From a virus (taxonomy: Duplodnaviria; Heunggongvirae; Uroviricota; Caudoviricetes), in IMG/VR virus record IMGVR_UViG_2537562191_000049: DNA of 39,777 nt; one strand, given 5' to 3'. The translations under genes were made by a program, and so were the position numbers. Shown here piece after piece: positions 3,047 through 3,450 of the stretch (the first letter of the stretch is position 1; each line of letters begins with the position of its first letter). A model generated the notes under the pieces. The model was given only the letters and a program-made list of their open reading frames with translations. It was not told the origin of the DNA and did no database searches.

Positions 3047-3092
3047 TTAATTTGCTCCAGATACAAGGAATCGCCGCAGCATGGCTACGGTT

Positions 3093-3118
3093 GGTATTTG
3101 TTGCATACCGAAACGGTA
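3093..3118. promoter_or_regulatory. Overlapping inverted repeats in the divergent mnt/tailspike leader (candidate operator)
   Basis: GGTAT-N7-ATACC (3093-3109) overlapping TACCG-aaa-CGGTA (3106-3118), upstream of the Mnt-like start. Confidence 0.3.
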
Positions 3119-3178
3119 CGATTGTTGATTTGTACAGTAGGTTTTACGATGCCATTCCACCCATTTGGTGAGGCATTG

Positions 3179-3436
3179 ATGATGTACAGCAAATACGATG
3201 AGGCGCAGTTCCACTTGAGGCTTACGCACGAGTTGCACGCCAAGATTAAGCAACGTGCAAAAATGAATAACAGGTCTATCAATTCCGAAATTGTGGCTAC
3301 GATGGAAGAATCGCTCTCCAAACCATCACCTGTAAGCGGGTATCGTGATGAAGAAGAGAGGCTTGCCTCATTAATCTCGGAACGAGTAAAAGAAGTTGCG
3401 GCTGATATTCTTAGAAAAGAAAAAACCCGCGATTAA
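3179..3436 (+). CDS. mnt: Mnt-like ribbon-helix-helix repressor
   Basis: C-terminal 85 aa of ORF 2708-3436 starting at internal MM (3179/3182): ...NNRSINSEIVATMEESLSKPSPVSGYRDEEERLA... resembles recalled P22 Mnt (NGRSMNSELLQIVQDALSKPSPVTGYRNDAERLA). The upstream part of the long ORF is antisense to the tailspike and rejected. Confidence 0.75.
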   Translation: MMYSKYDEAQFHLRLTHELHAKIKQRAKMNNRSINSEIVATMEESLSKPSPVSGYRDEEERLASLISERVKEVAADILRKEKTRD

Positions 3437-3444
3437 GCGGGTTT
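3423..3444. terminator. Bidirectional hairpin terminator between convergent mnt and the antirepressor operon
   Basis: aaacccgc-gattaa-gcgggttt, A-run upstream and T-run downstream; mnt stop codon lies in the loop; minus-strand ORF stop at 3451 just beyond. Confidence 0.5.
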
Positions 3445-3450
3445 AATTGG

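Follow-up and report, generated by a model that had tools for sequence, protein, structure and literature searches.

In an E. coli prophage that belongs to the P22-like phages (Lederbergvirus), the Mnt-like gene that diverges from the tailspike gene encodes a member of the P22 Mnt family and probably forms a self-contained regulatory unit, in which the protein would bind one site centred on position 3112 and regulate its own weak promoter, with either sign. This reading is built on homology, positional equivalence to P22, conservation, co-variation of protein and operator, uniqueness of the site, purifying selection and the decay of the promoter Pant that opposes mnt in P22, all of them established computationally. 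The window, i.e. the whole stretch of DNA analysed, comprises 39.8 kb of the prophage, and the features relevant here are collected in Table 1.

Table 1. Features of the mnt-tailspike region and the neighbouring antirepressor operon (window coordinates)
Feature	Position	Strand	Basis or remark
Tailspike gene, 645 aa	1109..3046	-	ORF; start codon 3044-3046; Pfam Head_binding 1.7e-66 and Beta_helix
Intergenic region, 132 bp	3047-3178		Between divergent tailspike and mnt-like starts
Tailspike leader, 'boundary sequence' of P22-like phages	3047..3091	-	Comparison with P22 and CUS-3; 61-sequence alignment
Small RNA hairpin in tailspike mRNA leader	3074..3090	-	RNAalifold consensus
GGTAT-N7-ATACC repeat	3093..3109	unstranded	Right arm inside operator; left arm in unconstrained spacer
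Predicted Mnt operator	3104..3120	unstranded	17 bp, CATACCGAAACGGTACG; core TACCG-AAA-CGGTA 3106-3118
Predicted mnt promoter, P22 Pmnt homologue	3122..3150	+	-35 TTGTTG 3122-3127, 17 bp, -10 TACGAT 3145-3150
Shine-Dalgarno GGTGAGG of mnt-like gene	3167..3173	+	Read from sequence; conserved
Mnt-family repressor gene, 85 aa	3179-3436	+	ORF; Pfam Arc PF03869; 1MNT
GC-rich hairpin over mnt stop codon	3423..3444	unstranded	Terminator scan and inverted repeat
Antirepressor (ant) operon	3451..5362	-	Pfam, PHROGs, synteny with JEP4
orf73	3672..3451	-	In ant operon
Second anti-repressor family protein	4400..3672	-	In ant operon
Ant, Bro-N and P22_AR_C domains	5115..4489	-	In ant operon
57-aa RHH-like protein	5362..5189	-	In ant operon
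Sigma-70-like ant operon promoter	5412..5440	-	TTGACT-17-AATAAT, 10/12
cI/LexA-like repressor	5462..6103	+	Pfam HTH_3 and Peptidase_S24; divergent from ant operon

A first-pass annotation of the window had placed both ORFs, the gap between them and two inverted repeats at coordinates that agree with the sequence and the ORF list. It had also described the mnt-like gene as convergent with the ant operon, whose last ORF does run leftward to 3451, and as lying 1.7 kb from it, a distance that fits the start of Ant, the promoter-like site being about 2.0 kb away. The second in-frame ATG of the mnt-like ORF, at 3182, is the start in relatives and would give a protein of 84 aa. The tailspike product on the other side has a P22-type head-binding domain at its N-terminus and a beta-helix body. 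The hairpin over the mnt stop codon features a strong T-run on the minus strand and a weaker T/A run on the plus strand; it is the predicted terminator of the ant operon, where it would be a functional analogue of P22 t_ant, and it is probably used bidirectionally. A stretch of 601 bp around the mnt-like locus is 100% identical in strains including E. coli O111:H8 and occurs at full length in 55 of the 5426 complete E. coli genomes, while JEP4 shares the entire block 3034-6200 with 95% identity.

The assignment as an Mnt homolog, already made in the first-pass annotation, is borne out by several comparisons. The 85-aa product matches Pfam Arc with an E-value of 4e-15 (55.8 bits at a cutoff of 20.4) and PHROG 795 with 6.5e-33, and it is 47% identical to P22 Mnt. 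A phmmer comparison with PDB entry 1MNT gives 3e-16, residues 7-79 of the query being aligned to 3-75 of the chain. The protein thus possesses the N-terminal ribbon-helix-helix (RHH) of the Arc/MetJ type, and the match to 1MNT takes in the linker SKPSPV.GYR as well as the C-terminal helix, features that set Mnt apart from Arc. As in P22 Mnt, a palindromic operator, here a predicted one, lies directly upstream of the -35 element of the gene's own promoter and is two-fold symmetric about its central base pair, as expected for two half-sites. According to mutational work from the Sauer laboratory, Arg2, His6 and Asn8 of P22 Mnt are reportedly base-contacting residues. At the aligned positions Tyr, Gln and His are found in the window protein, which retains Arg10.

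Selection on the gene bears on the question of whether it is a remnant of a decaying immI region, in which gene and repeats are left without current function. This possibility has been raised for the mnt-like gene of phage L in the paper on its genome (PMC8022706), and it would agree with the absence of Pant, arc and ant at this position, with a nonsense mutation in one relative (Citrobacter prophage L008) and with findings on Gally, in which mnt stays at background in stationary phase in LB and its deletion had no phenotype in a single assay (PMC9928086). The selection analysis contradicts it. Compared with VSe13-type genes, including those of ant-less phages, the mnt-like gene yields dN/dS values of 0.02-0.05, at synonymous sites that are saturated with respect to the VSe13 group (dS 1.0-1.5), and this strong purifying selection argues that it is not a relic. 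The ORF is, furthermore, intact in about 110 loci from five genera (Escherichia, Salmonella, Shigella, Citrobacter and Serratia), and operator and -10 element are invariant while the neighbouring spacer varies. We therefore regard a functionless remnant as highly improbable.

The two inverted repeats noted earlier are both perfect. The first consists of GGTAT (3093-3097) and ATACC (3105-3109) with an N7 spacer, the second of TACCG (3106-3110) and CGGTA (3114-3118) with AAA between the arms. A pair of perfect inverted repeats with 5-bp arms is within chance for a region of this length: at least two also occur in 33% of dinucleotide shuffles and in 40% of tiles of 132 bp cut from the window. Only comparative data can lend them significance. 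For this purpose 61 unique homologous intergenic sequences were compared, the pseudogene locus of L008 being left out. Set beside the annotated sequence of P22, the 132-bp region splits into three parts, 3047-3091, 3092-3104 and 3104-3178, the last of which is homologous to the Omnt-Pmnt-mnt leader of P22. Polymorphism peaks in the middle part, also when only loci with 99-100% identical Mnt proteins are compared, and this part houses the left arm of the first repeat, which reads GGCAT, GATGT, GGTGT, GGAAT, AGCAT and others in relatives. GGTAT-N7-ATACC is consequently not a conserved element. Its left arm is not conserved as DNA, wobble pairs that would maintain it as RNA were found on neither strand, and we judge it to be a chance repeat. 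Of the 'overlapping inverted repeats' of the first-pass annotation, both are present where they had been placed, but they do not make up one element, and the second alone is conserved. Two further candidates in this region were discarded. A LexA box over Pmnt (TTGT-N8-ACAG, 3122-3137) lacks the critical CTG in all relatives, many of which also have CCAG in place of ACAG, and a long-range RNA fold between the operator region and the tailspike Shine-Dalgarno sequence (z = -2.7) is absent from the consensus fold of the relatives.

The part next to the tailspike, 3047-3091, is conserved across the 61 sequences, and its P22 homologue is the 48-bp stretch that precedes gene 9. Within it lie the tailspike Shine-Dalgarno sequence GGAG (3058..3055, minus strand) and the motif CCGCAGCATGGCTACGG, which is found twice in the ant-9 spacer of P22 and inside the CUS-3 region annotated as bsq1. 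The leader is an element separate from the operator unit and forms a junction of mosaic modules. Its transcript can fold into a 6-bp hairpin (CCGUAG-CCAUG-CUGCGG on the minus strand), for which 95.4% of the cells in the alignment are paired, versus 21-63% when the partners are slid, with three compensatory cells. Swaps of GC to GU and of UG to CG pair only on the minus strand, that is in the tailspike mRNA. This hairpin is not followed by a U-run and is thus not an intrinsic terminator.

Position, conservation, co-variation with the protein, uniqueness and one natural case of decay identify TACCG-AAA-CGGTA as the predicted Mnt operator. Measured against the series formed by ATTG, -35, -10, Shine-Dalgarno sequence and ATG, the centres of the palindromes coincide in the window, in P22 (GGTCCACCGTGGACC) and in ST160/ST64T (AGACCACGGTGGTCT), although the palindromes themselves differ, being GGTCCAC-C-GTGGACC in P22 and AGACCAC-G-GTGGTCT in ST160/ST64T. 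Like the P22 operator, the predicted site is a single palindrome centred on a base pair that ends 1 bp before the -35 element of a weak promoter. Its central base pair is situated around -45 if counted from the predicted start of mnt transcription, and 66 bp separate it from the ATG of the tailspike gene. TACC, AAA and GGTA are constant in the 61 unique intergenic sequences with the exception of L061, which has TAAC, and ATTG and TTACGATGCC show no or hardly any variation. A second copy was sought throughout the 39.8-kb window, allowing up to 3 mismatches to the pattern or up to 1 mismatch to TACC-N5-GGTA, and the matches obtained did not exceed chance level. The case of decay is provided by L008, in which codon 5 of mnt is TAG and GGTA of the operator is replaced by AGTA.

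Protein and operator vary together in the family. The recognition strand of the window protein, DEAQFHLRL, is paired with TACC-N-AAA-N-GGTA in 52 of 58 unique sequences when the site is anchored automatically; the remaining ones are mis-anchored and also carry this site. The recognition strand DDPQFNLRL goes along with AGACCAC-N-GTGGTCT, DDPHFNFRM, present in P22, Pluralibacter and Pectobacterium, with GTCCACCGTGGAC, and the APSE-like strand DDPQFNFRM with ATATCACCGTGATAT.

The predicted mnt promoter was assigned by positional homology to the annotated Pmnt of P22 (TTGAGA-17-TATCAT), with which it also shares the distance between -10 and start codon and the context of the Shine-Dalgarno sequence. 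It is weak, matching the consensus in 7 of 12 positions and staying below the threshold of the promoter scan, and its spacer of 17 bp is replaced by one of 15 bp in two sublineages, those of Sf101 and L067. Transcription would start near 3157. The promoter opposing it has decayed: the Pant hexamers of P22, TTGACA/TATATT, match the consensus in 11 of 12 positions, whereas the counterpart in the window, ATGGCA/CAAATC, reaches 6/12 and lacks the final T of the -10 element. In the ST64T type, the counterpart is TCGGCA/TATATC (8/12).

Taken as a self-contained unit, the locus would function as follows. The Mnt-family repressor, equipped with its RHH domain and a C-terminal oligomerisation helix, presumably forms a tetramer and would bind the single cognate operator at 3112, and occupation of this site would change transcription from the Pmnt-homologous promoter TTGTTG-17-TACGAT. 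Decay of Pant would have left behind a repressor gene, its own promoter and one operator, and the unit would be independent of the neighbouring ant operon, which has a cI/LexA-like repressor to itself, along with a small RHH protein. Of the roles considered, autoregulation, suggested as a possibility in the first-pass annotation, is the one that the positional homology with Omnt/Pmnt of P22 favours most, but that homology does not fix the sign of the regulation. In vitro experiments by Vershon et al. 1987 are said to have revealed that Mnt at P22 Omnt represses Pant and raises the activity of Pmnt by shutting off Pant. As Pant is gone in the window, this way of raising Pmnt cannot apply here. 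A statement in the secondary literature has it that Arc represses both Pant and Pmnt. Should occupation of the site hardly affect Pmnt directly, a different target would have to account for the strict conservation of the site. It also counts against a mere orphan autoregulator that it offers no obvious account of the purifying selection or of the existence of several operator specificities. That a class-B mnt is transcribed in vivo is documented for Gally, where the gene rises from background to log2 9 (PMC9928086). RNA-seq data for Kapi1, in which mnt is not expressed, were set aside; Kapi1 has the P22-type mnt-arc-ant layout and is uninformative for the window.

The first-pass annotation had proposed that the protein may control its own gene, the tailspike or seroconversion rather than ant, and as regards ant this very probably holds. 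The reverse, namely repression of the promoter at 5412-5440 by the Mnt-like protein acting from its new position, has family precedent alone in its favour, P22 Mnt being a repressor of Pant, together with the fact that the gene adjoins the ant operon. Against it, we found no Mnt-type site within 5363-5461 when 3 mismatches were allowed, nor TACC-N5-GGTA with 1 mismatch. The ant promoter is instead embedded in repeats of its own of the ACTCA/TGAGT type, and the divergent cI/LexA-like gene fills the slot that is held by mnt in P22, the 57-aa RHH-like protein being a further candidate regulator within the operon. In relatives with an identical tailspike-side mnt, the ant regulators are swapped for an Arc-like gene and a second RHH regulator with other palindromes, and mnt is kept where ant is absent. 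It is thus very unlikely that the Mnt-like protein regulates the ant operon at 5.4 kb, and of all readings considered here, action on this promoter from a distance is the one to which we would assign the least probability. SOS-type modules in which a cI/LexA-like repressor controls ant provide the appropriate match for 3451-6103 and are unrelated to the mnt-like gene.

Control of a tailspike promoter, another target that had been put forward, lacks sequence support. The promoter scan returned no leftward promoter in 3047-3178, a manual search for TANNNT combined with any -35 element yielded nothing credible there, and the hexamers homologous to Pant are the decayed ones described above. Control of seroconversion lacks support as well, no site being present near the acyltransferase gene (1-1068). 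A separate proposal dispenses with a local promoter. It assumes that the operator-bound repressor limits leftward transcription that enters the tailspike gene from elsewhere, acting either as a roadblock or by way of transcription that runs from Pmnt in the convergent direction, in lysogens, induced lysogens or superinfected lysogens. The traffic concerned would come from the late operon and, by read-through of the terminator at 3444..3423, from the ant operon, and it would pass the operator shortly before reaching the tailspike ATG. In line with this idea, mnt, its operator and the 5' end of the tailspike gene are neighbours in some 110 loci, regardless of what is found on the far side, and the blocks of homology with VSe13, Sf101 and IME10 cover the tailspike N-terminus, the intergenic region and mnt together. 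Gating would also explain the conservation of the site even if there were no effect on Pmnt.

Expression data for the prophage Gally can be read on both sides of this proposal. In macrophages, RNA-seq recorded an increase from log2 3.7 to 9.0 for mnt (40-fold) and from 3.9 to 6.7-7.8 for the tailspike (8- to 16-fold), while the upstream late gene stayed at background with 3.6-4.1 (PMC9928086). Tailspike mRNA is thus raised along with mnt, but the joint rise is contrary to simple repression. The transcripts could stem from read-through of the strongly induced upstream gene, from an unrecognised promoter or from general de-silencing of this AT-rich region. The missing sigma-70-like leftward promoter and the decayed Pant hexamers likewise weigh against gating, and operator and tailspike start do not keep a constant distance, the Sf101 type having about 14 bp less between them. 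Late transcription of P22-like phages is, moreover, antiterminated, which may help it to pass obstacles. On balance, gating of the tailspike is conceivable but rather unlikely. Unlikely, too, and to be rated lower, is the more far-reaching idea that Mnt and its operator constitute a dedicated checkpoint on tailspike supply and not a leftover autoregulator. If it were true, the repressor made in a lysogen would occupy the one site that every transcript must cross on its way to the tailspike gene and so limit tailspike. The output of infectious particles would be limited as a result, be it upon induction or in superinfection by homotypic phages, and the several operator specificities would reflect competition between phages.

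Another function could be exerted in trans. The Mnt protein of the prophage would silence promoters of the Pant type that carry the same operator on incoming P22-like phages and so shield the main repressor from a foreign antirepressor, the local operator serving for homeostasis only. P22 Mnt does act in trans on superinfecting P22, as known from classical genetics. Such immunity would explain both the purifying selection in phages that possess no ant of their own and the occurrence of several protein/operator specificities, as with immunity repressors. In viral contigs, the exact variant ATACCGAAACGGTAC is present in at least 120 loci, and among the matches listed 30 have mnt and 90 do not. 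The latter match none of the P22-like queries (Mnt, Arc, Ant, tailspike N-terminus, gp16 and SieA), so that among the matches listed none of them is an ant promoter of the Pant kind, in a scan that used this one variant and does not amount to proof of absence. The arc/ant promoters of related loci use other palindromes as well. We consider trans-immunity clearly unlikely. One family, in which the operator match occurs twice at a distance of 515 bp, proved to be an unrelated, repetitive intergenic element.

The mnt-like gene had been termed 'displaced' in the first-pass annotation, yet the tailspike-proximal position is normal for the lineage and known from phage L, ST64T and ST104 (PMC2629481, PMC8022706), and 'ant morons' with mnt alone have already been described for ST64T and ST104 (PMC2629481). 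The layout is recurrent, not a DISPLACEMENT. We found an mnt homologue divergent from the tailspike gene at a distance of about 135 bp in JEP4, VSe13, Sf101, IME10, 720R6, ST160, ST64T and Gally; the same layout occurs, with or without ant, in L, ST64T, SE1, ST160, Sf101, Gally and many prophages and in nearly all of the approximately 110 loci with the window's Mnt type in viral and genome collections. The gap between mnt and gene 9 amounts to 135 bp in ST64T, ST160 and VSe13 as compared to 132 bp in the window, and among 62 unique intergenic sequences 61 have lengths of 121-140 bp, the last one measuring 261 bp. The far side of mnt, by contrast, takes four forms. Either injection gene 16 follows directly (Sf101, L089-L093), or a truncated ant (VSe13), or an ant operon with a cI/LexA-like repressor and the 57-aa RHH-like protein as in the window, or the same ant genes under an Arc-like protein and a second, different RHH regulator that takes the canonical place of mnt (L016, L019, L021, L027 and others).

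Comparison with the characterized systems places the unit more precisely. With the immI region of P22 the window shares the protein family, its length, the RHH N-terminus and the homology of the C-terminal helix, but the operators differ (TACCG-AAA-CGGTA versus GGTCCAC-C-GTGGACC). In contrast to P22, mnt of the window faces the tailspike directly, the interval up to gene 9 lacking an Arc operator, arc and ant. An immI switch of the P22 kind is consequently not present: the operator does not overlie a strong divergent Pant, arc and ant do not follow directly past it, and the predicted arrangement does not have Mnt repressing ant. The orphan mnt genes of L, ST64T, ST104, SE1, ST160, 720R6 and Gally exhibit the layout, the boundary leader and the register of the palindrome seen in the window, and the divergent mnt and a gap of 120-140 bp are common to both. 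Differences concern specificity, DDPQFNLRL with AGACCAC-N-GTGGTCT in the L/ST64T type as opposed to DEAQFHLRL with TACC-N5-GGTA and a remodelled C-terminal tail in the window, and the surroundings. In the L/ST64T type there is no ant in the interval between genes 16 and 9, whereas the window contains two anti-repressor family genes (3672-5115), its mnt unit being located, as in JEP4, beside a complete and separately regulated two-antirepressor operon. The specificity type of the window is also that of Sf101, IME10, VSe13, JEP4 and prophages from Escherichia, Salmonella, Citrobacter and Serratia, which have the window's recognition strand, operator and position and proteins that are 63-99% identical; what varies is the far-side neighbourhood (gp16 directly, a shortened ant, or a complete ant operon with one or the other regulator set). 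The mnt gene of Sf101 is mis-annotated as 'chromosome segregation ATPase'. As far as can be told from sequence, the mnt unit of the window is a member of the already described tailspike-proximal 'orphan' mnt arrangement with a different class of operator specificity.

Several consequences ensue. The mnt homologue beside the tailspike in this type of E. coli prophage is not to be annotated as a regulator of ant, and a probable operator and promoter can now be named for it. The Mnt family offers a natural series of four pairs of recognition strand and operator that is usable to test rules of DNA recognition by beta-strands. Finally, selection and operator conservation argue for a functional gene, which makes testable the question raised in the literature of why ant-less phages keep mnt (PMC2629481, PMC8022706).

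The leader of the tailspike mRNA carries a conserved hairpin of 6 bp that is part of the 'boundary sequence', the conserved tailspike leader annotated as bsq1 in CUS-3. Its pairing is kept by wobble swaps, which are effective solely on the tailspike-mRNA strand, and no U-run follows it on this minus strand. The hairpin possibly has a role in processing or stability or as a recombination joint. The 13 bp that separate it from the predicted operator (3092-3104) are hypervariable, with at least eight alleles occurring in loci that are otherwise 99-100% identical, and look like an unconstrained spacer flanked by two constrained elements or, alternatively, like a frequent recombination joint. 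A natural case of decay is provided by a Citrobacter sp. prophage (L008), in which the mnt gene (2998-3255) has a TAG at codon 5, the sole nonsense case among the relatives found. In the predicted operator of the same prophage (2926-2942), AGTA replaces the otherwise invariant GGTA.

JEP4 (3730-4000) has retained the tailspike leader as well as the opening codons of a tailspike of the window type, after which come about 270 bp of unrelated AT-rich DNA and then its own tailspike head-binding domain. As this unrelated DNA precedes the head-binding domain, the annotated tailspike start of JEP4 may be wrong, or else the 5' end has been replaced. In P22, the spacer between ant and gene 9 encodes a 32-aa remnant (4560-4655) that matches, at 59% identity, the C-terminal end of the window's 242-aa anti-repressor family protein. 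Since the remnant is flanked by both copies of the boundary sequence, the arrangement suggests that P22 once held an anti-repressor family gene of the 242-aa type at this position.

CUS-3 contains two mnt-like genes in tandem, adjoining ant (4680-5209); the recognition strand, i.e. the N-terminal beta-strand motif, is P22-type in one and the divergent KNPQVNLRL in the other. Many records, among them Sf101 (5236-5529) and several RefSeq phage entries, mislabel the Mnt homologue, either as 'chromosome segregation ATPase' (the label in Sf101) or else as 'partition protein ATPase', and so does PHROG 795. On an RHH repressor of 83-86 aa this label is a propagated misannotation.

The operator 18-mer CATACCGAAACGGTACAC was also encountered, among the matches listed, in an unrelated family of viral contigs (L096, 7579-8108; also L098, L105, L109, L118 and others), where it is present twice, 515 bp apart. 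Each copy in these L096-type contigs lies within a repeated, intergenic, promoter-like element directly upstream of a small gene. The P22-like query proteins (Mnt, Arc, Ant, tailspike N-terminus, gp16 and SieA) gave zero matches to these loci. The 18-mer may be there by coincidence, or a different regulator may use it as its site.

The ant module of the window (3451-6103) is a complete unit under separate regulation. One copy of the direct repeat AATGAATTTT (5439-5448) is located at the edge of the -35 element in the ant-operon promoter, and the second copy (5461-5470) spans the start codon of the gene for the cI/LexA-like repressor. In near-identical relatives, the regulator pair is replaced by an Arc-like protein and a different RHH regulator with its own palindromes, and because the pair differs between relatives otherwise so similar, the ant regulators are exchanged as a cassette occupying one slot.

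Leader hairpin and repressor genes in the window
Feature	Position	Strand	Remarks
Conserved 6-bp hairpin	3074-3090	-	tailspike mRNA leader
cI/LexA-like repressor with S24 peptidase domain	5462-6103		the ant operon, with genes for a 57-aa RHH-like protein and two anti-repressor family proteins plus orf73, runs divergently
Main immunity repressor	31689-32405		S24 domain, as in the ant-module repressor

With two repressors carrying an S24 domain, the prophage therefore potentially possesses two SOS-cleavable repressors, one for main immunity and one in the ant module.
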